The notes: generated by a model from the letters alone, not told the origin. A stretch of DNA of 52,512 nucleotides from Candidatus Helarchaeota ASGARD archaeon Hel_GB_A (GCA_005191415.1 SUPS01000001.1:1-52512); one strand, 5' to 3'; numbered from the stretch's first letter, positions 3,269 through 32,697 are shown. Program-made: numbers and translations.

Positions 3269-4465
3269 TTATTTTGCAGAGACAATTTTAATTATATCGC
3301 CATATTGTAACTCATAACTTTCGCCTAAACGTTTTTTAGTCCGGGCATTGATTCCATGGATAAAATATTTCTCGAAATCTGTGTGAATTTTACCCGCAAA
3401 TTTTCGAAGCGGCATACCTCGCTTTACTAAATACACATCGGGTAGCACTCTACCATCTTTATCTGAATAACTTTGAACATCATGGACTGGATATACTGGG
3501 ATCAAGTCTAATAGTTCAAAAACTGTTACATTTATAGCTTTTTGGACACCTAAGGACCCATATTCTGATAAAAGCTGTTTTAAATTATCCAATACTTTAA
3601 GTTCTTTTTCAGAAAACACTTCCGGCTTTAATACTTCAAATTTATTATCACCAGGTTGATACACAATAATTCCTTTTTCGGCATAACGACGTAACCAATA
3701 TTCTCCAAGTGCGCATGCAGGAACTACTATCTTCTCTAATGTCTTTTGCATTCGTGCAATATTTTCCTTTGCGGGTCCTAAATCCATTTTGTTTGCAACA
3801 ATTAACATCGGTTTCGCAATAGCTTGAAGTTCTTTCGTAAATCGTTCAATATCTTTCTCAGACCAGCTACTTGGTTTTTCTGCGTTAAGATTACTTTTCT
3901 TTACAGCACTTATAATGTGTGTTCTGGTAATACTTAATCCCGAAAGACGATCCGCCATTGTCTCGATAAATGAAATTTTTTCGGTTTCAATTCGTCTGGT
4001 AAATTTCCGCCAATCGCGCCTTATTATCTGCATCAACCACATAATAATCTCATGATCTAAAAATTCTACGTCTTTTAAGGGATCCCATGTACCTGGTGGT
4101 ACATTTTGTCCCTCTGCATCTGTTGCCCCTGCCGCATCGACGACATTTATCAATGCATCAGCACGTCTCAAATCATCCAAGAATTTATTCCCTAATCCCT
4201 TCCCTTCCCATGCCCCTGGGACCAATCCTGCTACATCTAATAAATTTATGGGAATTAAACGTGTGCCATTTACACATAAAGAATTTTTAGGGTTACATTG
4301 TACATTTAACTGTTTACAAGGGCATTCTGCTGTTACATAGGCGGTTCCTGGATTAGGTTCAATTGTTGTGAAAGGATAATTGCCCACCTTAGCAGTGGTC
4401 ATACATGCAGCATTTAGAAACGATGATTTACCACTACTCGGTTTTCCTACTAATCCTATTAACAT
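3269..4465 (-). CDS. Obg-family GTPase, Ygr210/YchF-like subfamily, with C-terminal TGS-like domain
   Basis: 398-aa ORF. G1 is GLVGKPSSGKSS, G3 is DVAG and G4 is NKMD, so it looks GTP-specific (unlike the NxxE of true YchF/OLA1). The C-terminal YELQYGDIIKIV is a TGS-like beta-grasp. Confidence 0.85.
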   Translation of the reverse strand: MLIGLVGKPSSGKSSFLNAACMTTAKVGNYPFTTIEPNPGTAYVTAECPCKQLNVQCNPKNSLCVNGTRLIPINLLDVAGLVPGAWEGKGLGNKFLDDLRRADALINVVDAAGATDAEGQNVPPGTWDPLKDVEFLDHEIIMWLMQIIRRDWRKFTRRIETEKISFIETMADRLSGLSITRTHIISAVKKSNLNAEKPSSWSEKDIERFTKELQAIAKPMLIVANKMDLGPAKENIARMQKTLEKIVVPACALGEYWLRRYAEKGIIVYQPGDNKFEVLKPEVFSEKELKVLDNLKQLLSEYGSLGVQKAINVTVFELLDLIPVYPVHDVQSYSDKDGRVLPDVYLVKRGMPLRKFAGKIHTDFEKYFIHGINARTKKRLGESYELQYGDIIKIVSAK

Positions 4466-4481: not shown

Positions 4482-5231
4482 TCATTTTATTCTATACGGT
4501 GATGGTGACGTAGTCGGCAATAAATCCTCATATTCATATATCATTTTCCAAAAACAGTAAGCCGTTAGCCCGTAAACTACCCATGTAAATCCTGATAAAA
4601 TACTATATAACACAGGATCTACAGAGACCGAGGGTTTCAACGCTGGGAGAAACAACTCCACAAGCCATAGAACGCCTGTTATCATAATAAAATAGCGTAT
4701 TGGGTGGGCTTGACTATTAGCTCCAATAAGGATGAAAAAAAACGCAATTAATATCGTATAAATCAGTAGAAGAATTGAAGAAATCGTTTCGAGACCGAAA
4801 TACAAACTATTTACTATTAAATCTGTTTGTGTATACCGTAGGGGATTGGCAATTAGAAAAATAGATAGATTCAAGGTTGCAATAATCGAGGCATCAATTT
4901 GAAACACCCCACCCCAAAGACCTGTATCGCGGAGCATTCTTTTTCCTGCATAATATACACCTAAACCGAAAAGAATCCCAAATATTTGCATAAGATAAAA
5001 TGAAACTGTGGCAACCTCAAAAGACATCGGTTCTGTCATAAAGATAGGATACATTGTCACCACGAAATCTACTACTATGAGTGCTACTATACTCAACATT
5101 CCTAACTTCATAAAAAATTCGATTCTATAAGCTCTTCTTTTCTCTAACTCGGCTTTCTCCCGCTCAAGGCGACGTCTTTCCATCTTTTTCTTGCGCTTTT
5201 CTAATCGTTTTCCAGTCTTCTCTGCTTCCAT
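4482..5231 (-). CDS. Polytopic membrane protein with a highly charged coiled-coil-like N-terminus
   Basis: 249-aa ORF. The N-terminal KRLEKRKKKMERRRLEREKAELEKRRAYR is followed by about 6 hydrophobic helices. Divergently transcribed from the 1019-aa gene. Confidence 0.5.
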   Translation of the reverse strand: MEAEKTGKRLEKRKKKMERRRLEREKAELEKRRAYRIEFFMKLGMLSIVALIVVDFVVTMYPIFMTEPMSFEVATVSFYLMQIFGILFGLGVYYAGKRMLRDTGLWGGVFQIDASIIATLNLSIFLIANPLRYTQTDLIVNSLYFGLETISSILLLIYTILIAFFFILIGANSQAHPIRYFIMITGVLWLVELFLPALKPSVSVDPVLYSILSGFTWVVYGLTAYCFWKMIYEYEDLLPTTSPSPYRIK

Positions 5232-5363: not shown

Positions 5364-8300
5364 ATGACAGTTCCGCTACGATTGCGTTTGATTTCAAGTA
5401 AAAAGTTCGAGAAGCCTATCTATACTGTAGCGACAGGTGATTTTGATGGCGATGGACGTTTAGAACTTGCAATTGGCTGTGGTGATGGGAGCCTTCAATT
5501 ATTTAAATTCGATAGAGGAAATTTAAACTCGGTCTGGACTACCAAATCTTGGGCTTGGATTGATCAAATCATTGCTGCCGATATAAATCAAGACTATATC
5601 GATGAATTACTCGTAATTATGGGCAAAAAATTGATTATCTATAAATATAAAGACCCAACTTATGAACAAATTTGGGAAATTGAAACTAACGCCACCATTA
5701 CTTCTGTTTTCGTGGGTGATTCGAATAATAACCGCCAAAATGAATTATTGATCTGTTGCAATGACGGCTCGATCACGATATTTGCACAAACGGAAGAACC
5801 CTTTAAATTTAAAAAAGTCTGGAGAAAAAAATATGAAGGTGACACGCTCATCAGTCTCGGTGATTTAGACGCTGATACCTTGAATGAGATGGTCATAGCA
5901 AACAATAACATACTCCGGATTTTCCGTGTAATTGAAAAATATCCTAAGAAAGAAGTTTGGTCTGAAACCTTCAAAGCCTACATAAAGAAATTATTATTAT
6001 TCGATTTAAATGATGATAAAAAATCAGAAATTTTCTTAGGAATGGAGGATGGAGCGCTACGAATATTTAGTCATAAAGATGGAAATTATTTCTCTGAAGA
6101 TAAACAATATAAATTCACAAATCTTGTCTCTGCTTTAGCATCAGGAAAAATCCATGATAAAAATATCATAATAGCAGGGTCTTATGATAATACTTTACGA
6201 GGATTCCGGGATGCCGAGATCTTTAAGATTGAAACTTACGATAAGATTTACGCGCTCTCATTTTCTGATATAGACCATGATGGAATCGATGAAATTATCT
6301 GTGCAAGTGGTAATAACCTTTATATTTTAAAAGATGAAGTATTTCTCATTTGCCAAATCGATTATCCCATATCCATCTTCTCTGAAAAAGAGCTTATAAT
6401 TACTTTTTACATAAAGAATAACTCAGAAAATCGAATTTACAACATAGATTTCTCAAATTTAGAGTGGGTTCCCAAAATTTTAACTTTAAAAAAATCAACC
6501 TTCAAAATTCCCCTTCTCGAAAAATATAGTGGGGTCGAATTAACTTTCAAATTTGACGTGCCTTTGGTTGAAAAGGTCACTCCTGTTGTATTTCCACGGT
6601 TTAAAATAACATTCGAAATGAAAAATTTACAATTATCACAAAATATTCCTGAAATTTCAGTGAATATCCTTCCACCCTTCTCTCATATTGCACAAAATAT
6701 TCTCAAGAAATGTGAGCACCTCACAAATATAAAAGTTCCTTTGAAATCACTTACAAAGCTTGTCGAAAAGGATCTTGGTCCTTTAAATCACGATATCGAA
6801 CAGATTATTTCTCGACTAATTGAAGAAGGCTTTATTGAAGGGTCACTTTCTAATTGGGTTTTATTTATTCGCGATTTAAAACCTTTCTCTGCAGAAGCTT
6901 TCAAAGAAGAATATCCATCGGCTCAGAAAGTTATACCTCCACGCCTTTTTATGAATGTGTTAAGAAAGATTATCAAAAGCAAAAAGAGAACACTATTGCC
7001 TGAACTTATTAATCAGTATAAACATGATCTACAAGAAATCCAGGACATGATTAAAAAACTTAAAGATAACTTTGAAATTACAGGTGTATTAATTCCCGAT
7101 GAAGAATTTCTCTTTTTATCGGATAATGAAATTAACCAGATTGTTGAAACTATTAATAATACTCCTAATATCTCACTTTCAGAGATTGCCGCACGTTTTG
7201 ACCTCCTTGAGAAAGAAGTAGAATTTCTTATCAACGATCTTATCGATCGAGGTATGTTGTATGGCCAAATAATCACTCTTGATAATGAAAAAAAATTCAT
7301 TACCGTAAAAACCTTATCAGAACTTCTTCTGAATGAATTAGAAAAGCAAGGTAAAATAACTATCTTGACTTATTCTCGAAAAATGGGTCTCTCTGCCGAT
7401 CTTGTCCGTGAGGCGATAAGAACTCTTCTTGACTCAAACCAAATTCAAGGCACCTATACTTTCAATGGAGCTATCTTTTATACTCAAGCTCGACTTGAAA
7501 AGGATTTATTAGATACCATCAAAATTTCAGAAATCAGTAGTATTGGACTAAGCTCATTAGCGAAAGACTTTATGATTTCTAAAGACACAATAACTGCAAT
7601 TTTAAACAATCTCATCAACAAACAGCTAATTAATGGATATATCTCAGAAAATACTCTCTTTATAAAGAGCTATGAAGAAGAACGGTTACGTGATATTTTT
7701 GAAAAATATGTAGATGCTTTAAATCTCATTCATATATTAATAATTCACAAAGAAAGTGGAATTGCCATTTTCTCTGGATCATATACTACTGAAAAAATTG
7801 ATCCTGTCCTTGTTTCAGGATTCTTACAAGCTATCACTTCTTTTGGTTCCGAAATTTCAGGAGATCACGCTCCTTTTAGACTCTTACATTATAAAAATTT
7901 TAAAATTTCTGTTCAAGAAGGACAACATATTCTTGGTGCCCTTATCCTCAAATCAGATCCTTCCCAACGACTTCTCGATATCTTAAAGCATTTTATCCGG
8001 TTTTTTGAAACGAATTACCGCGAACATCTTCAAGATTTCCGTGGTGGTATTGATCCTTTTCAGGATGCAGATACTTTAGTTGATGACTTTTTTGAAATCA
8101 GCTTGAGTTTCCCCCATGAAATCAATGAAAAACAAGTGTTTAAAAATCGAAATAAATTATCTGCGAATGATCTTGTTTTAATTAATTTAGCACGGAGCCT
8201 TGGACGCCAATTTGCCCTTGGAACCTTGATAGAACTCGCTAGTAAGGAAATGTTGATTTCCCAACTTGAAGCATTTTCTATAATTTATGACTTACGAGAT

Positions 8301-8423
8301 AAAAACATTTTCTACGTCCCTAGTGAAGAACGTAAATGGTGCCCCCATTGCGGGTCCATCATCCAAAAGTCGGCGACTACCTGTCCTCATTGTTTACGCA
8401 ATATTCACGAAACTCTTGATTAA
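5364..8423 (+). CDS. Multidomain protein: 7-blade FG-GAP-type beta-propeller, beta-sandwich, tandem winged-helix array, longin-like domain, winged helix and C-terminal zinc ribbon
   Basis: 1019-aa ORF. Seven repeats of the type TGDFDGDGRLELAIGCGDGSLQLF (aa 1-325; D-x-D/N-x-D-x3-E in six of seven). All-beta segment at aa ~326-437. Five repeats of a ~45-aa wH-like unit at aa ~455-768 (e.g. LSEIAARFDLLEKEVEFLINDLIDRGMLYGQI). A beta-beta-alpha-beta-beta-beta-alpha segment at aa ~785-890. WCPHCGSIIQKSATTCPHC at aa 992-1010. Confidence 0.8.
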   Translation: MTVPLRLRLISSKKFEKPIYTVATGDFDGDGRLELAIGCGDGSLQLFKFDRGNLNSVWTTKSWAWIDQIIAADINQDYIDELLVIMGKKLIIYKYKDPTYEQIWEIETNATITSVFVGDSNNNRQNELLICCNDGSITIFAQTEEPFKFKKVWRKKYEGDTLISLGDLDADTLNEMVIANNNILRIFRVIEKYPKKEVWSETFKAYIKKLLLFDLNDDKKSEIFLGMEDGALRIFSHKDGNYFSEDKQYKFTNLVSALASGKIHDKNIIIAGSYDNTLRGFRDAEIFKIETYDKIYALSFSDIDHDGIDEIICASGNNLYILKDEVFLICQIDYPISIFSEKELIITFYIKNNSENRIYNIDFSNLEWVPKILTLKKSTFKIPLLEKYSGVELTFKFDVPLVEKVTPVVFPRFKITFEMKNLQLSQNIPEISVNILPPFSHIAQNILKKCEHLTNIKVPLKSLTKLVEKDLGPLNHDIEQIISRLIEEGFIEGSLSNWVLFIRDLKPFSAEAFKEEYPSAQKVIPPRLFMNVLRKIIKSKKRTLLPELINQYKHDLQEIQDMIKKLKDNFEITGVLIPDEEFLFLSDNEINQIVETINNTPNISLSEIAARFDLLEKEVEFLINDLIDRGMLYGQIITLDNEKKFITVKTLSELLLNELEKQGKITILTYSRKMGLSADLVREAIRTLLDSNQIQGTYTFNGAIFYTQARLEKDLLDTIKISEISSIGLSSLAKDFMISKDTITAILNNLINKQLINGYISENTLFIKSYEEERLRDIFEKYVDALNLIHILIIHKESGIAIFSGSYTTEKIDPVLVSGFLQAITSFGSEISGDHAPFRLLHYKNFKISVQEGQHILGALILKSDPSQRLLDILKHFIRFFETNYREHLQDFRGGIDPFQDADTLVDDFFEISLSFPHEINEKQVFKNRNKLSANDLVLINLARSLGRQFALGTLIELASKEMLISQLEAFSIIYDLRDKNIFYVPSEERKWCPHCGSIIQKSATTCPHCLRNIHETLD

Positions 8424-20294: not shown

Positions 20295-22301
20295 ATGAAG
20301 ATGAAGTCTATGGATAAAATAAGACGGAAAAGAGTTAAGACCTTTTTAATTGCTGTAATTTTTCTTCTACCTTTCTTTTCCTTTACTGTTTCTATCAATG
20401 ATGCTACTATTTCATCTTTTCTTCCTATTCAAAATTTGCCACCTGATAATTCCATTTTAATTCCCGAATCTGCTCAGAATGGGAATATGAATCAGCAAAA
20501 ACTTTCACCTTATTTTCAACAACTCTTAAAAACAGGAAATTTAGGTCAAACGGTTTCTTGTATCGTTCTTTTAAAGGATCAAGTTACAAAAGAAGTGGTA
20601 ACCCAAATTAAACATGATACTTCGTGTCAAGATAGAAATGCTTTTAGAAAATTGTTATACGCAGAAACGAAAAAACGAGTTGAGCCCCAACAGAAGGCAT
20701 TAACTACTCCTATCCTGCTACTAGGTGGGAAAATTAAAGGGCATTCAGTTATTTTAAATGCACTCTTCGTAGAAATCACGCTCGAAAATTTACCAAAATT
20801 GGCAGAATTATCTCAAATTGCCCGAATAGAGCCCGACTATCGACTACAAATCCAATTAGATCATAGCCAACAAATTGTGTTGAATACCACATCTCCAGGC
20901 TGGAATTATACTTATGATGGATCAGGTGTCATCGTTGCCGTTTGTGATACTGGTATTGATAAAAATCATCCGAATTTAGTTGGACGCGTTATAGCTGAAG
21001 AAACTTTCATTGGAGGAACTCCCGATGATACCAACGGACACGGGACACATGTTGCTGGGATAATCGCAAGTAATAATAGTATTTTTCATGGAATTGCATC
21101 TGGGGTTAGCCTAGTCAATGTTAAAATAATGAATTCTGCTGGATCTGGATATTCTACTGATCTTTTTGAGGGTGTTGAATGGCTATTAAATGGAAGCGGG
21201 CCAGGTGTCGATATAATCAATTTATCCGCAGGGACCCCTGATAATGCAGATGGTGAATCCGTTTTGTCACGCTTTGTTGATGCAATTGTTTCCGAATATG
21301 GTATCGTTTGGGTTAATGCAGCTGGTAACTCTGGTCCTAGTAGCTCTTCATTAGAAATTCCTGGTGATTCGATGAATTGCATTTCTGTTGCAAATTTTAA
21401 AGATAACAATGATCCTAATCCCTCTGCATGGTCCATTTTTGACTCAAGTAGTCGTGGTCCTACATTAGACGGCCGAAAGAAGCCAGATCTCGCGGCTCCA
21501 GGCACGAATATCAAATCCTGCAACTCCAATTGGGAATCATCTGATGATTTTGTCTTAAAAAGCGGAACCAGTATGGCAGCTCCGCATGTTACAGGTGCTG
21601 CAGCCCTCTTATGGCAATACCTTTCGATAAACTACGCATCCCTCGATCCTTGGTGGTATGCCTTAGCGGTAAAGGCTATCCTTATTCATACTTCTTACGA
21701 TCTGGGAACCCCAGGCTATGACTATGCATATGGCTATGGAGCTGTAGATATGGGTGCAACTTGGAATTTCATCCAATCAGGACATCTCGAGGTGGAGAAT
21801 CTCAGTCGCCCGTACGGAATCTGTAAGTATCGAATAGTATTAACCTCCCCTCAAGCAATTAATGTTACGTTGGTCTGGAATCGGTATGCAACAACTAACT
21901 ATACACATATTACATCTTACCAACTCGCTGATATTGACATGTACTTAACAAATGCAGATGGTATTCCCTTAGCTTCCTCCACTAACAAGGTTGATAATGT
22001 CGAACAGATTTCATACTTTGCGCCCAACGGGACCTATTATCTTATTGTCGGGATTTCTACTTTTACTCATGATCCCCAAGAATTTGTCATTGTTTCTAAC
22101 GTTTCCCTAACTCTAACTGAAAAATTTCAAACATGGGATCTTTTTCAGATTCTATTCGTTGTTAGTATCGTTGGCATGGTTGTAGTTGGTGCTATTTATA
22201 TTTATTATTGGCTTCGCGAACGAAGGGCTGAAGAACTCGATGAAGAAGATGTAGAATATGAATCTACTTGGCCCGATTGGTCATCTCCTCCTGCCTATTA
22301 A
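20295..22301 (+). CDS. Subtilisin-like serine protease (S8) with signal/anchor sequence, propeptide and C-terminal TM anchor
   Basis: 668-aa ORF. Catalytic triad motifs VAVCDTGID, HGTHVAGI and SGTSMAAPHVTGAAAL. N-terminal hydrophobic segment FLIAVIFLLPFFSF. C-terminal TM ILFVVSIVGMVVVGAIYIYYWL followed by an acidic tail. Confidence 0.9.
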   Translation: MKMKSMDKIRRKRVKTFLIAVIFLLPFFSFTVSINDATISSFLPIQNLPPDNSILIPESAQNGNMNQQKLSPYFQQLLKTGNLGQTVSCIVLLKDQVTKEVVTQIKHDTSCQDRNAFRKLLYAETKKRVEPQQKALTTPILLLGGKIKGHSVILNALFVEITLENLPKLAELSQIARIEPDYRLQIQLDHSQQIVLNTTSPGWNYTYDGSGVIVAVCDTGIDKNHPNLVGRVIAEETFIGGTPDDTNGHGTHVAGIIASNNSIFHGIASGVSLVNVKIMNSAGSGYSTDLFEGVEWLLNGSGPGVDIINLSAGTPDNADGESVLSRFVDAIVSEYGIVWVNAAGNSGPSSSSLEIPGDSMNCISVANFKDNNDPNPSAWSIFDSSSRGPTLDGRKKPDLAAPGTNIKSCNSNWESSDDFVLKSGTSMAAPHVTGAAALLWQYLSINYASLDPWWYALAVKAILIHTSYDLGTPGYDYAYGYGAVDMGATWNFIQSGHLEVENLSRPYGICKYRIVLTSPQAINVTLVWNRYATTNYTHITSYQLADIDMYLTNADGIPLASSTNKVDNVEQISYFAPNGTYYLIVGISTFTHDPQEFVIVSNVSLTLTEKFQTWDLFQILFVVSIVGMVVVGAIYIYYWLRERRAEELDEEDVEYESTWPDWSSPPAY

Positions 22302-25189: not shown

Positions 25190-25340
25190 TTTTTTCTCAA
25201 CAATTCTTCTGTTTGTGTATTTAAAATTATATTAGAATTTAAAATTTCAGCTTTCTAGTTAAATTTTTGAGGACTAAAATTCATAGATAAATTGTCAATT
25301 AATAAATACTTTTCATCAATTAATAGGAGTTTGAGCAACT

Positions 25341-26090
25341 ATTCAAATAGCATTTTTCCTCGGAATTGGAATCGCTATTATAGCTATCTTAATCTTTATA
25401 ATTGTTTATTTAAAATATCTCCGCGGCCGGGAAATAAGGCGATTTAGCGCGGATCAAATAAAATCCCAAATTGGCGACCTCTCAAATCTCGCGCATATTC
25501 TCGTAATTTATAAACAAAGCGGTATCGCGATATTTTCCCAAAATTTCGGTTATGATTATCTCGACCCGACTCTCCTTAGTGGTTTATTGGAAGCTATCAA
25601 TATCGTAGGTTCCAAGGTAGGTGCCAAAGGGAAACTGCGCCGCCTTGAATATGAAAAATATCGAATTTTGATTCATGAAGGTAGATATGTTCGTGGAATT
25701 GTTATGTGTCGTGAAAACCCTTCATCTTTCTTAGAAGATGCCTTGACCGTTTTCGTTAAGCGTTTTGAGAATAAATTTGCTGGTACTTTAATGGAATGGA
25801 ACGGAGATCTAAGTAAATTTCAAACAGCAGTCGAACTTGTAGATGATTGTTTTTCGATTGCGCTCATTTATCCTATGGTCGTCATGTGGGAAGGTGAAAA
25901 TCCCGAAGAACTCACCGAACTCGAACAAAAAATCCTTGAAATCGCTAAAGAAGTTTGTCTCGAAAAAGAGTGTTTTCTCATTCCTGACTTGTTAGAGATC
26001 TTAAAAACAAAATTGAAAAAATCTCCCGATAAACTTCTAGCTCTTCTCTATGATCTTCATAAACGCCAATATTTTATATCACTCACGTAA
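25341..26090 (+). CDS. Membrane-anchored longin-like domain protein with C-terminal winged-helix-like module; non-canonical start or frameshift
   Basis: The frame is open from 25335 and encodes a TM helix (IAFFLGIGIAIIAILIFIIVYL) and the first longin strands (HILVIYKQSGIAIFS). These are 11/15 identical to HILIIHKESGIAIFS of the 1019-aa protein. There is no ATG/GTG/TTG in frame before the TTG at 25587. ATT at 25341 lies 11 nt after AGGAG. The ORF track only reports 25587..26090. Confidence 0.6.
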   Translation: MQIAFFLGIGIAIIAILIFIIVYLKYLRGREIRRFSADQIKSQIGDLSNLAHILVIYKQSGIAIFSQNFGYDYLDPTLLSGLLEAINIVGSKVGAKGKLRRLEYEKYRILIHEGRYVRGIVMCRENPSSFLEDALTVFVKRFENKFAGTLMEWNGDLSKFQTAVELVDDCFSIALIYPMVVMWEGENPEELTELEQKILEIAKEVCLEKECFLIPDLLEILKTKLKKSPDKLLALLYDLHKRQYFISLT

Positions 26091-30855: not shown

Positions 30856-32697
30856 TTAATTAGGAAACTTAATTCTAAGGGATGGATCACCAAGGAGGAG
30901 ATACATGGCAATATTTTCTTTCGTATAATCATCCGGAAAGTTTCTATAAAGTTGTATTGTAGCATAATTGAAAATCTTTCCGACAACGCGAAGTTTTTTA
31001 TCGACAATCGCCCGGAAAATAAAACGGTCAAAATGATGATTTGGCTGTGTATAACTGGGGCGACTTGCACCGAGAAATGCGACTGCACCATTTGCTGCTT
31101 CTACAAATGCTTCTCCAAAACATTCGCCACTAACATCTATTGCATTATTAAGACAACATATCGAAAATACAATTGGAAATTTCCCATTGTTTTTTAATTT
31201 CCTGACATCATTGACATCAAGGCCATTTGAGGATTGCCATTCCCACTCGCTTCCATGTCCTCGGTAGTTAACGATCCCGCATCCTTTCTCTAATTCATCG
31301 ATAACTTCTTCTTTTGTAGATTCTCCGCCATATCTCTTGATTATTCGGAAGCCTTTCTTTTTTACTCCTTTTAGAATTTCTGCGATATCGTCACAACAGC
31401 TTATATAATCATCTCGTTCATAAGCAGTTAAGAGCACACGATTTATCCAAGTACCTCTATTATTTTTTTCATACTCCAAGATTTTATTAATATATCTTTT
31501 CAATTTCTTTGGATCATTGATAGCAATTCGCCCAAGGGATATATCTGGTCCAATATCTCCTATCAAATTTGAATAATACCAATCGCTGGGGCAGTTAAAA
31601 GTGGGATCTTGACGTGTTGGAATTTTTCCGACCTCGCCTACTAACAGAACATATTCCGGTGGCTCTTCCCAATAATCATATGCAAATAAGATAAAATCAC
31701 GAATAGCTTTAAAATTTTCCTTATTTTCACTTTTAAATTCATTATAAATTTCAATATCAGTTACAATTTTCGTTGTCATACCTCGTTGTTCTTTACTCTC
31801 TGCCAATGGTTTCAATACTTGAACTAAATTCTCAGAAGTAATAATAAGATATTGTCCCTTATTAGAAGTTTTACATAATTCCCCCCTATTAATTGGGATC
31901 GCGATTCTCCGAGTGCCTCCATCACCAAGTGTCCGAAGATCTTCGATTGACTCTAAGTTTAATACTTGATCTTTGTATTCTGCCAGTATTTTCTGAGCGA
32001 TTGGTGCTACAGGCTGGATTTCCTTTGCTTCACTCGGTTTTTCGGGCGCTACTCCTCTCAACTCTGCAATTCCTAGGCCTGGGGTATATTCGATAATTAA
32101 ATTAATTTGATTATATACGATTAACTTTTTAGACTTTGGCTTGTAATGCAATGGATACATCATAAGATGGAGAACTTTTACACTTCCTACAAAATTTGTT
32201 GATATGACTTTAAACAGTTCTTTGGGGTACTCCTCATCCTTTTTATAAATCTGATCTTTTGGTTTATATTCAGGCTCTTTCCAGTCATATTCAAAACCAC
32301 CGTCCAACGTTGGTTCTGGTGCTGGAATGATATTCAATTCACCAGGGAATTCGAAACTCTCACTATCGACGACTTTAATATCTAATAATTCTGCCCCTGA
32401 AGGCAATGCTACAAATAATCCTTCAATTGGTAGCATTGGTTCGCCTGGTTCTAGAATTACACCGGATTCTGGCATCTCTAGGGTATATACTTTGGTGTCT
32501 TTCTGCTGAATTTTTGCGACAATTTCTTTATACCACATACCTTCGGGTGTATATGTTATTTTTAATTCATATGCTCCTTTTTCGTCTTTAAAATCCTTCT
32601 GTAATTGCTTCTGAGGAGGTATGCCTATCTCTTTAGCCCCTCTCAACTTTCTTTTTTCTTTAAAAGCTCGAAAACTAAACCATTCAGCCATTTTCAT
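30856..32697 (-). CDS. Peptidase family C25 (gingipain-like, clan CD) with N-terminal C25 propeptide-like domain and no signal peptide
   Basis: 613-aa ORF. IVNYRGHGSEWEW (His481) and FPIVFSICCLNNA (Cys514/515) match the gingipain His/Cys dyad contexts (YTGHGSE ..., ACVNG). The N-terminus MKMAEWFSFRAFKEKRK is charged, not signal-like. Confidence 0.8.
   Translation of the reverse strand: MKMAEWFSFRAFKEKRKLRGAKEIGIPPQKQLQKDFKDEKGAYELKITYTPEGMWYKEIVAKIQQKDTKVYTLEMPESGVILEPGEPMLPIEGLFVALPSGAELLDIKVVDSESFEFPGELNIIPAPEPTLDGGFEYDWKEPEYKPKDQIYKKDEEYPKELFKVISTNFVGSVKVLHLMMYPLHYKPKSKKLIVYNQINLIIEYTPGLGIAELRGVAPEKPSEAKEIQPVAPIAQKILAEYKDQVLNLESIEDLRTLGDGGTRRIAIPINRGELCKTSNKGQYLIITSENLVQVLKPLAESKEQRGMTTKIVTDIEIYNEFKSENKENFKAIRDFILFAYDYWEEPPEYVLLVGEVGKIPTRQDPTFNCPSDWYYSNLIGDIGPDISLGRIAINDPKKLKRYINKILEYEKNNRGTWINRVLLTAYERDDYISCCDDIAEILKGVKKKGFRIIKRYGGESTKEEVIDELEKGCGIVNYRGHGSEWEWQSSNGLDVNDVRKLKNNGKFPIVFSICCLNNAIDVSGECFGEAFVEAANGAVAFLGASRPSYTQPNHHFDRFIFRAIVDKKLRVVGKIFNYATIQLYRNFPDDYTKENIAMYLLLGDPSLRIKFPN

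Follow-up and report, generated by a model that had tools for sequence, protein, structure and literature searches.

A stretch of 52,512 nucleotides from Candidatus Helarchaeota ASGARD archaeon Hel_GB_A (GCA_005191415.1 SUPS01000001.1:1-52512; hereafter, the window) was found to contain a gene for a multidomain protein of 1019 residues (5364..8423, + strand; ATG at 5364, stop codon at 8421-8423), in which an FG-GAP beta-propeller, an Ig-like beta-sandwich, five winged-helix (WH) domains, a roadblock-WH module and a zinc ribbon follow one another from the N- to the C-terminus. The module represents, at the family level, a group that is undescribed in Pfam, NCBIfam and the Protein Data Bank (PDB), and in the Asgard surface proteins that usually carry it, it lies in the cytoplasm just behind a predicted transmembrane helix. 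By sequence comparison, the five WH domains are homologous to the WH array of eukaryotic DDRGK1 and UFL1. The explanation tentatively favored here is that the 1019-residue protein is a cytoplasmic adaptor, which would be recruited to membrane-anchored module proteins by the pairing of roadblock domains, possibly with the participation of a small GTPase. The protein is of interest because no organisms are known to be closer relatives of eukaryotes than the Asgard archaea, and because it bears on how the eukaryote-like trafficking domains of these archaea are connected with one another.

The window is AT-rich (G+C 32-40%). A search covering 5.8 billion proteins returned 14 homologues of full or nearly full length, with 51-68% identity to the 1019-residue protein, and one extra, partial copy that is 95% identical; the mean column identity of the homologue alignment was 68%. 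Because full-length homologues have been kept at this level of identity, the open reading frame, whose start and stop codons were located where a first-pass annotation of the DNA had called them, is a genuine conserved gene, with the look of an expressed one, and not a chance reading frame. A phyletic survey of the full architecture confined it to the 14 homologues, all of them unnamed and at one syntenic locus, and the family is restricted to the Helarchaeales, an order within the Asgard archaea. Homologues with a named source come from Helarchaeota or Promethearchaeota metagenome-assembled genomes (MAGs), and their annotations are generic only (“hypothetical”, “zinc ribbon domain-containing”, “FG-GAP-like repeat-containing”). 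All named members are from Asgard archaea, apart from one full-length homologue (P0007, locus L005; 57% identical) on a 28-kb contig (DATKTP010000138.1), which is filed under a bacterial MAG, “Candidatus Deferrimicrobium sp.”, and is probably mis-binned. A scan of GTDB species genomes located two loci of the family, using degenerate patterns that are too specific for distant relatives, and so says little on phyletic spread. Neither a signal peptide nor a transmembrane segment was found in any of the 14 orthologues, and the protein is therefore soluble and cytoplasmic; the WH domains and the Cys4 ribbon fit this assignment.

The roadblock-WH module and its membrane-proximal setting

A full-length AlphaFold2 (AF2) model, built on the 14-sequence alignment, reached a mean predicted local distance difference test score (pLDDT) of 72, and was weak between aa 770 and 990 (pLDDT 36-63), where only the 14 close homologues contributed to the alignment. 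When the module (aa 770-985) was remodelled alone with a 34-sequence alignment of distant relatives, the pLDDT rose to 93.2, with a predicted template modelling score of 0.85. The first half of the module (aa 770-890; 7671..8033, + strand) adopts a roadblock/longin fold with the topology alpha-beta-beta-alpha-beta-beta-beta-alpha, which, by published topology definitions (PMC10933270), is that of a full roadblock domain. The second half (aa 891-985; 8034..8318, + strand) consists of short helices and a sixth, three-helix WH domain at about aa 933-985 (second-half helices at 165-176, 183-194, and 198-210 in module numbering). A Foldseek search of the PDB gave AP-2 sigma as the best fold match (E 7.6e-5), followed by matches to MglB (1.5e-4), AP-1 sigma3, LAMTOR subunits, zeta-COP, Rag C-terminal domains and the Asgard Roadblock3; of the 94 fold matches with E<=1e-3, the 50 that were listed were without exception roadblock, longin or sigma/zeta-adaptor-type chains. 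The resemblance to sigma-adaptin-type longin domains that the first-pass annotation had read from the translation was thereby borne out, and both folds on which that annotation had staked its description, the propeller and the longin/roadblock domain, were returned by AF2. Sequence comparison was less revealing: neither copy of the module in the window had a Pfam match, apart from a sub-threshold signal to Intu_longin_1 (E 0.05), and the module profile found no sequence match in the PDB.

Roadblock domains are obligate dimerizers, which associate through the central helix and an edge strand. Among 143 module sequences, the most conserved helix was the central alpha2 (aa 814-832, SGFLxAIxSF), which lies in the pattern D-x2-L-[IV]-S-G-F-L-x-A-I-x-S-F at aa 813-827; the last beta-strand (aa 856-862) was conserved slightly above the central helix. 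The central-helix region has been reported to mediate roadblock dimerization (PMC10933270).

The module is followed in the 1019-residue protein by a C-terminal Cys4 zinc ribbon (aa 986-1019; 8319..8420, + strand), with the motif CPHC-x10-CPHC at aa 993-1010. Its four cysteines (C993, C996, C1007, and C1010) are kept in at least 90% of homologues, and the Pfam zinc-ribbon models fell just under their cut-offs (Zn_ribbon_3, 24 bits against 27). The final WH domain and the near-invariant cysteines agree with the C-terminal end outlined in the first-pass annotation.

To map the distribution of the module, 1.84 billion representative proteins were searched with a profile built from aa 426-1019. Matches numbered 2492 at E<1e-3, of which 859 reached E<1e-10 and 162 reached E<1e-30; with few exceptions they were limited to profile positions ~345-560, equivalent to aa 770-985. 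The matching proteins are 238-1956 aa long, and every member with a source name is from Asgard archaea (Hel-, Prometh-, Hod-, and Sigynarchaeota). The roadblock and WH halves were conserved together in 142 of the 149 best representative proteins, and 136 of the 149 carry a transmembrane-like segment no more than 80 aa upstream of the module, 58 of them with an additional N-terminal signal-like segment. Their putative ectodomains match Big_1, Big_3_5, MG2, MG4, NHL or FG-GAP, or nothing in Pfam. Soluble module proteins form a minority; among them are Helarchaeota proteins annotated as “PCI domain-containing”, in which the module is accompanied by zinc ribbons and a UFL1/DDRGK-like WH array. Given its juxtamembrane position in surface proteins, the module is better read as a device for docking at the membrane than as a GTPase platform standing on its own. 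A small-GTPase platform domain had been proposed at first pass; the full roadblock topology sustains the structural part of that proposal, while the setting of the module shifts the functional part.

A second copy of the module was found in the window, behind an N-terminal transmembrane helix (25335..26090, + strand), and its product is a candidate membrane anchor or partner of the 1019-residue protein. This paralogue, which the first-pass annotation had placed at 25341-26090, was recovered by BLASTP (3e-34, 32% identity over 203 aa) and by hmmsearch with the module profile (8.5e-73). Its orthologue family (P0018) has a length of 238 aa. The paralogue frame has no ATG, GTG or TTG from the in-frame stop at 25332-25334 to 25587, yet the transmembrane helix is coded from ~25341; a GGAG lies ahead of it at 25326-25329, and translation likely starts at ATT 25341 or ATA 25347. 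Automatic annotation probably truncates or misses this gene, since the orthologous gene calls P0018 and P0169 also begin with a Leu inside the transmembrane helix.

C-terminal extensions beyond the module were present in 48 of the 149 best representative proteins (among P0017-P0165), mostly of ~195 aa (range 157-512). They are K/E/A-rich and mutually homologous (2040 BLAST pairs at E<1e-5). Sub-threshold signals to Pfam MIT (E 4e-4 to 0.3) were obtained for six of eight tested, together with sub-threshold TPR signals, and a profile of the extensions reached the MIT domains of NRBF2 and SKD1/Vps4B at E 0.04-0.12. If they were true MIT domains, the extensions would connect surface proteins to ESCRT-III. 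The 1019-residue protein does not have the ~195-aa tail.

The winged-helix array, propeller and beta-sandwich

The five tandem WH domains occupy aa 439-767 (6678..7664, + strand) and were delimited in the AF2 model as WH1 (439-505), WH2 (526-584), WH3 (587-647), WH4 (648-705) and WH5 (708-767). Five such units had been recognized at first pass, with a length of ~45 aa each; their number was correct, and their length in the model is ~60 aa. Three Pfam families of protein-scaffold WH domains matched the array. The PCI model (E 9e-14 on the whole protein, 9.5e-17 on the isolated WH segment) was matched three times, in its WH part only (positions 27-76 of 84), and no PCI helical-repeat part precedes any of the WH domains in the AF2 model. 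The DDRGK model (E 3.5e-7 on the whole protein; 2.4e-9, 37.6 bits against a cut-off of 27.8, on the WH segment) aligned its positions 101-183 with aa 530-612, and the E3_UFM1_ligase model (E 6e-7 on the whole protein; 1.4e-8, 35.2 bits against 23.2, on the WH segment) aligned positions 121-237 of 272 with aa 655-770. The array, which the first-pass annotation had assigned to the PCI/ESCRT-II kind, is thus specifically DDRGK1/UFL1-like and does not belong to the ESCRT-II kind. Further matches were to WH families of the Lrp/AsnC, MarR, HTH_24 and FeoC types; the last three barely passed the Pfam cut-offs on the isolated segment, and on the whole protein only FeoC did so.

Among PDB sequences, the best match was to an engineered chimera of DDRGK1 and UFL1 (8b9x), at E 3.9e-5 for the sequence alone and at 6.8e-11 for the family profile; Foldseek also recovered it (E 3.4e-10, 21% identity). 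The alignment is colinear, and pairs aa 530-759 with chain residues 11-242 across the DDRGK1-UFL1 fusion junction, such that WH2 corresponds to the DDRGK1 WH, WH3 to the composite WH, and WH4 and WH5 to the next UFL1 WHs; its register may be ambiguous, since repeated WH domains resemble one another. The composite WH of eukaryotes is made up of the last DDRGK1 helix and a partial UFL1 WH, and its counterpart, WH3, is intact in the 1019-residue protein. This arrangement suggests that eukaryotic DDRGK1 and UFL1 could derive from the fission of a contiguous WH array, and it offers a concrete, testable model for the origin of the split composite domain. The origin of UFL1 and DDRGK1 has previously been placed in Asgard archaea, and a UFM1-independent function was suggested (Picchianti et al. 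2023; PMC10183829). In the same study, UFM1, UFC1 and UFSP2 were reported exclusively in eukaryotes, where the UFL1-DDRGK1 complex acts on ER-bound ribosomes. Any UFL1/DDRGK1-like role of the archaeal array would have to be UFM1-independent, because archaea reportedly lack UFM1 and UFC1.

A second soluble family (P0019, P0020, P0021, and P0023; Helarchaeota “PCI domain-containing proteins” of 612-803 aa) joins UFL1/DDRGK/PCI-type WH arrays to the roadblock-WH module and has no propeller. Two of its members, P0019 and P0020, also begin with Cys-rich, zinc-ribbon-like N-termini. These four proteins may be among the Asgard UFL1/DDRGK1 homologues of the literature.

The seven-bladed FG-GAP propeller announced by the first-pass annotation (aa 1-325; 5364..6338, + strand) was recovered in the AF2 model as 28 strands, four to each blade, with a pLDDT of ~80-90. 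The Pfam FG-GAP_3 (E 4e-17, 62.9 bits against a cut-off of 26.9) and FG-GAP (33.7 bits against 22.1) models were matched, and the propeller also passed the thresholds of Beta-prop_BBS7 (E 4e-15, 56.2 bits against 27), Itfg2 (E 3e-11) and BBS2_Mid (E 4e-9, 37.1 bits). A D-x-[DN]-x-[DN]-x3-E loop is present in six of the seven blades (aa 26, 73, 119, 167, 214, and 302), with acidic positions that vary little or not at all across all 14 homologues; these loops may form Ca2+-type sites. Structural comparison of the full model with the PDB placed the BBS9, BBS7, BBS2 and BBS1 subunits at the top (E 9e-16 to 5e-13), in alignments of 470-920 columns that exceed the 325-aa propeller alone. ITFG2 of KICSTOR followed (E 1.4e-12, TM-score 0.68 on the target) and outranked generic WD40 propellers, the BBS1-ARL6 complex (4v0m) was among the matches of the propeller, and no integrin was among the top 50. 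The family profile likewise detected, among PDB sequences, BBS2 (chain 6vbu_2, E 1.3e-9) and ITFG2 (E 2.8e-8). The loop motif is shared by these aligned cytoplasmic proteins of eukaryotes, with “CDFDGDGKKELLVG” in BBS2 and “GDVDNDTLNELVVG” in ITFG2, where the corresponding loops of the 1019-residue protein read “GDFDGDGRLELAIG” and “GDLDADTLNEMVIA”.

The propeller is therefore of the cytoplasmic FG-GAP type, a class that includes BBS2, BBS7, BBS9 and ITFG2. No specific BBS orthology is claimed, because bacterial and archaeal FG-GAP/VCBS proteins likewise match the Pfam BBS models and, in a profile search with the N-terminal half, were the next-best relatives (E ~1e-13 or weaker). That search for relatives in other lineages, in which known orthologues were not re-listed except for the partial homologue P0005, did not find eukaryotic BBS or ITFG2 proteins. 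The likeness to eukaryotic scaffolds that had been sensed from the sequence is stronger than first stated as regards Pfam thresholds and top fold matches, and stops short of a specific relationship to the BBS proteins.

The all-beta stretch noted at about aa 326-437 was recovered in the AF2 model as an Ig-like beta-sandwich of ~10 strands (6339..6674, + strand; pLDDT ~80). It lies directly after the propeller, is ear/GAE-like in position, and is covered by the Foldseek alignments of ~500 columns with BBS subunits. At a permissive threshold, Pfam GAE_BBS1 gave a weak match to the sandwich in two of 14 orthologues (E 0.03), beside equally weak matches to unrelated families. A propeller and an Ig domain also occur together in P0026 (1143 aa; Promethearchaeota/Hodarchaeota cluster), which contains, in order, a signal peptide, an FG-GAP propeller, a Big_1 Ig domain, a transmembrane-like segment and the roadblock-WH module; its topology resembles that of integrin alpha, but with a roadblock tail.

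Proposed role, rival explanations and gene neighborhood

In the proposed mechanism, the roadblock-WH module would act as a docking device. The roadblock domain of the 1019-residue protein would pair with that of a membrane-anchored module protein, and the pair might form a platform for a small GTPase. Once docked, the protein would present the WH array, the propeller and the sandwich on the cytoplasmic side of the membrane, where together they would form a multivalent surface for interactions. Pairing with membrane-anchored module proteins is proposed because the module follows a transmembrane helix in most carriers and roadblock domains dimerize; the conserved alpha2 and the presence of a transmembrane-anchored paralogue in the same window support it. 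Several observations weigh against this proposal. The gene shares no operon with a small GTPase gene or another module gene, both window copies lie amid housekeeping genes, and no small GTPase, roadblock or ESCRT gene was found beside either copy; the synteny of the region as a whole carries no information on partners. The conservation of alpha2 could reflect folding and not an interface, and homodimerization of the soluble protein could occur just as well. Moreover, with a family found in one order and a module that is Asgard-wide, the 1019-residue protein cannot serve module-bearing receptors in general as their partner. A much broader version of the idea, which must be regarded as unlikely, would make the roadblock-WH module an Asgard-wide, membrane-proximal docking system on hundreds of receptor and adhesin tails, joined through roadblock pairing by soluble scaffolds such as the 1019-residue protein, and a prokaryotic forerunner both of cargo-adaptor/coat logic and of the DDRGK1-UFL1 pair, with DDRGK1 and UFL1 arising by fission within the WH3 counterpart.

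One alternative, possible though doubtful, is that the protein is itself a scaffold that regulates small GTPases or acts as their effector, in which a roadblock homodimer would serve as an MglB- or Ragulator-like platform or GTPase-activating protein for an Asgard Rag/Arf/Rab-like GTPase, and the propeller would bind a GTPase as the BBS1 propeller binds ARL6; membrane docking through paralogues would not be needed. The fold matches of the module, which are GTPase-platform proteins (MglB in complex with MglA, LAMTOR, the C-terminal domains of Rag, adaptor sigma/zeta), and the presence of 4v0m among the propeller matches are consistent with such a role. So is the abundance of GTPases and of roadblock/longin proteins, fusions included, that has been described in Asgard archaea (PMC10933270, and the preprint of Liu et al., 10.1101/2020.10.19.343400). 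However, no small GTPase gene is nearby, the adjacent GTPase being a YchF/YGR210-type Obg-like protein in a housekeeping block, the module has no sequence similarity to known roadblock/longin families, and its dominant juxtamembrane setting points to docking as the basic role. The specific similarity of the WH array to DDRGK1 and UFL1, and the location of the gene among genes for translation and RNA processing (Obg-like GTPase, RNase P subunits, L15e), could instead be accounted for by a ribosome or translation factor descended from a UFL1/DDRGK1 ancestor, whose array would lie along the large subunit at the membrane without UFM1. Such a factor is improbable: the neighborhood is generic, UFL1's N-terminal UFC1-binding helix and its ribosome-binding C-terminal part have no counterpart in the protein (judged from the extent of the Pfam match, 121-237 of 272), and the propeller, sandwich and roadblock domain would have no role.

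Six WH domains and a zinc ribbon might also be taken for those of a DNA-binding transcription regulator, in keeping with the matches to the MarR, HTH_24, Lrp/AsnC and FeoC families. The protein-scaffold families PCI, DDRGK and UFL1, however, score far better and pass their cut-offs, and the WH domains are mainly neutral or acidic (pI 4.2 for WH3, 5.05 for WH5, and 5.0 for WH6), which argues against a DNA-binding role. Moreover, the module usually occurs in membrane proteins, and nothing resembling the roadblock domain and the ~440 aa of propeller and sandwich is seen in regulators; this explanation is very improbable. Closest to refutation is the reading of the protein as an integrin-alpha- or VCBS-type adhesin, secreted or exposed on the surface. 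An Ig-like domain behind FG-GAP repeats with Ca-type loops is a typical feature of extracellular proteins, and the relative P0026 combines FG-GAP repeats and an Ig domain with a signal peptide and a transmembrane-like segment; but all 14 orthologues are devoid of both, WH domains and a Cys4 ribbon are present, the cytoplasmic BBS2 and ITFG2 carry the same loop motif, and no integrin ranks among the best 50 fold matches. The gene neighborhood favors none of these explanations over another, and the adaptor model, with recruitment by roadblock pairing, is retained as the tentative choice.

The gene is flanked, in the opposite orientation, by a gene for a membrane protein of 249 aa (4482..5231, - strand), which has a very basic N-terminal helix of 35 aa, ~6 transmembrane segments and no Pfam match, and beyond it by the gene for the Obg-like GTPase (3269-4465), both as described in the first-pass annotation. 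The membrane protein has 12 homologues (50-99% identity), several on the same contigs as members of the 1019-residue family, and its gene adjoins the 1019-residue gene in the four loci L001-L004. Its equally narrow range would be compatible with a functional link, but is equally explained by lineage-specific synteny, and the link is therefore not demonstrated. The syntenic block extends over more than 15 kb in four loci, down to 51% identity, and contains genes for a radical SAM protein, SSB, DUF2095, the Obg-like GTPase, the membrane protein, the 1019-residue protein, a 2-hydroxyacid dehydrogenase and RNase P subunits; L15e is also encoded in the neighborhood. The adjacency of the Obg-like GTPase was considered as functional evidence and rejected, as the whole block, unrelated housekeeping genes included, is syntenic; the link to this GTPase that had been suggested finds no support beyond region-wide synteny. 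Elsewhere in the window, two peptidases are encoded amid the housekeeping genes Pus10, L21e, Rpb4/RpoF and KsgA: a subtilase of 668 aa (20295-22301, + strand; Peptidase_S8, E 5e-52), and a gingipain-type Peptidase_C25 of 613 aa with a propeptide domain (30856-32697, - strand; E 1e-75).

Relation to known systems

The 1019-residue protein shares with BBS1, BBS2, BBS7, BBS9 and ITFG2 a seven-bladed FG-GAP-type propeller in a cytoplasmic protein, with BBS2 and ITFG2 the D-x-D-G-D-G-x-x-E loops, and with BBS1 a beta-sandwich after the propeller. BBS2, BBS7 and BBS9 continue with coiled-coil, platform and alpha-helical C-terminal domains, whereas the C-terminal 580 aa of the archaeal protein consist of WH domains, the roadblock domain and the zinc ribbon; because the C-terminal BBS domains are missing, the protein is not filed as a BBS protein. 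Prokaryotic FG-GAP/VCBS proteins are as close to it as the BBSome propellers are, and archaea are not known to have BBSome or KICSTOR partners. A search of the literature found no paper that joins Asgard archaea with FG-GAP, and none that links them to BBS propellers.

The comparison with DDRGK1-UFL1 (profile E 6.8e-11) reveals the same order of DDRGK1 WH, composite WH and UFL1 WHs, in a register that may be ambiguous. The eukaryotic array is divided between two polypeptides, whereas here it is contained in one. Neither the transmembrane anchor of DDRGK1 (by transmembrane scan) nor the UFC1-binding helix and the C-terminal domain of UFL1 (judged from the extent of the Pfam match) were detected in the 1019-residue protein, and only in the latter is the array fused to a propeller and a roadblock domain. 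With the roadblock/LC7-longin superfamily, the module has fold and topology in common, but no detectable sequence similarity to members in Pfam or the PDB, and in every case its roadblock domain forms a unit of ~215 aa with a helical linker and a WH.

The preprint of Liu et al. (10.1101/2020.10.19.343400) counts 130 asCOGs of the Roadblock/LC7 superfamily in Asgard archaea, and states that the architectures of multidomain eukaryotic-signature proteins are mostly unique and confined to particular lineages; in some of these proteins, an E3 UFM1-ligase-1 domain is fused to adaptin/COPI C-terminal domains and Vps28/Vps23. Shuffled Asgard multidomain proteins, UFL1-like ones included, are thus already known as a class. 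The text of the preprint, as far as searched, makes no mention of propeller or PCI domains, or of a propeller combined with a roadblock-WH module and a zinc ribbon. Three elements appear to be undescribed in the searchable literature, namely the specific architecture of the 1019-residue protein, its colinearity with DDRGK1-UFL1, and the occurrence of the roadblock-WH module as a unit next to the membrane in surface proteins. The module family is a ready candidate set for studying how Asgard cells couple surface proteins to cytoplasmic machinery, and the docking model, if true, would amount to adaptor-like recruitment to membrane-protein tails in a prokaryote. By analogy, its logic would parallel the recruitment of UFL1 by membrane-anchored DDRGK1, the anchoring of Rag GTPases by Ragulator, and the engagement of membrane-protein tails by the BBSome and AP adaptors. 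The protein unites, in one polypeptide, kinds of domains that belong to separate membrane-associated machines of eukaryotes: the propeller of the BBSome and KICSTOR, the WH scaffold of DDRGK1-UFL1, and the roadblock/longin platform.

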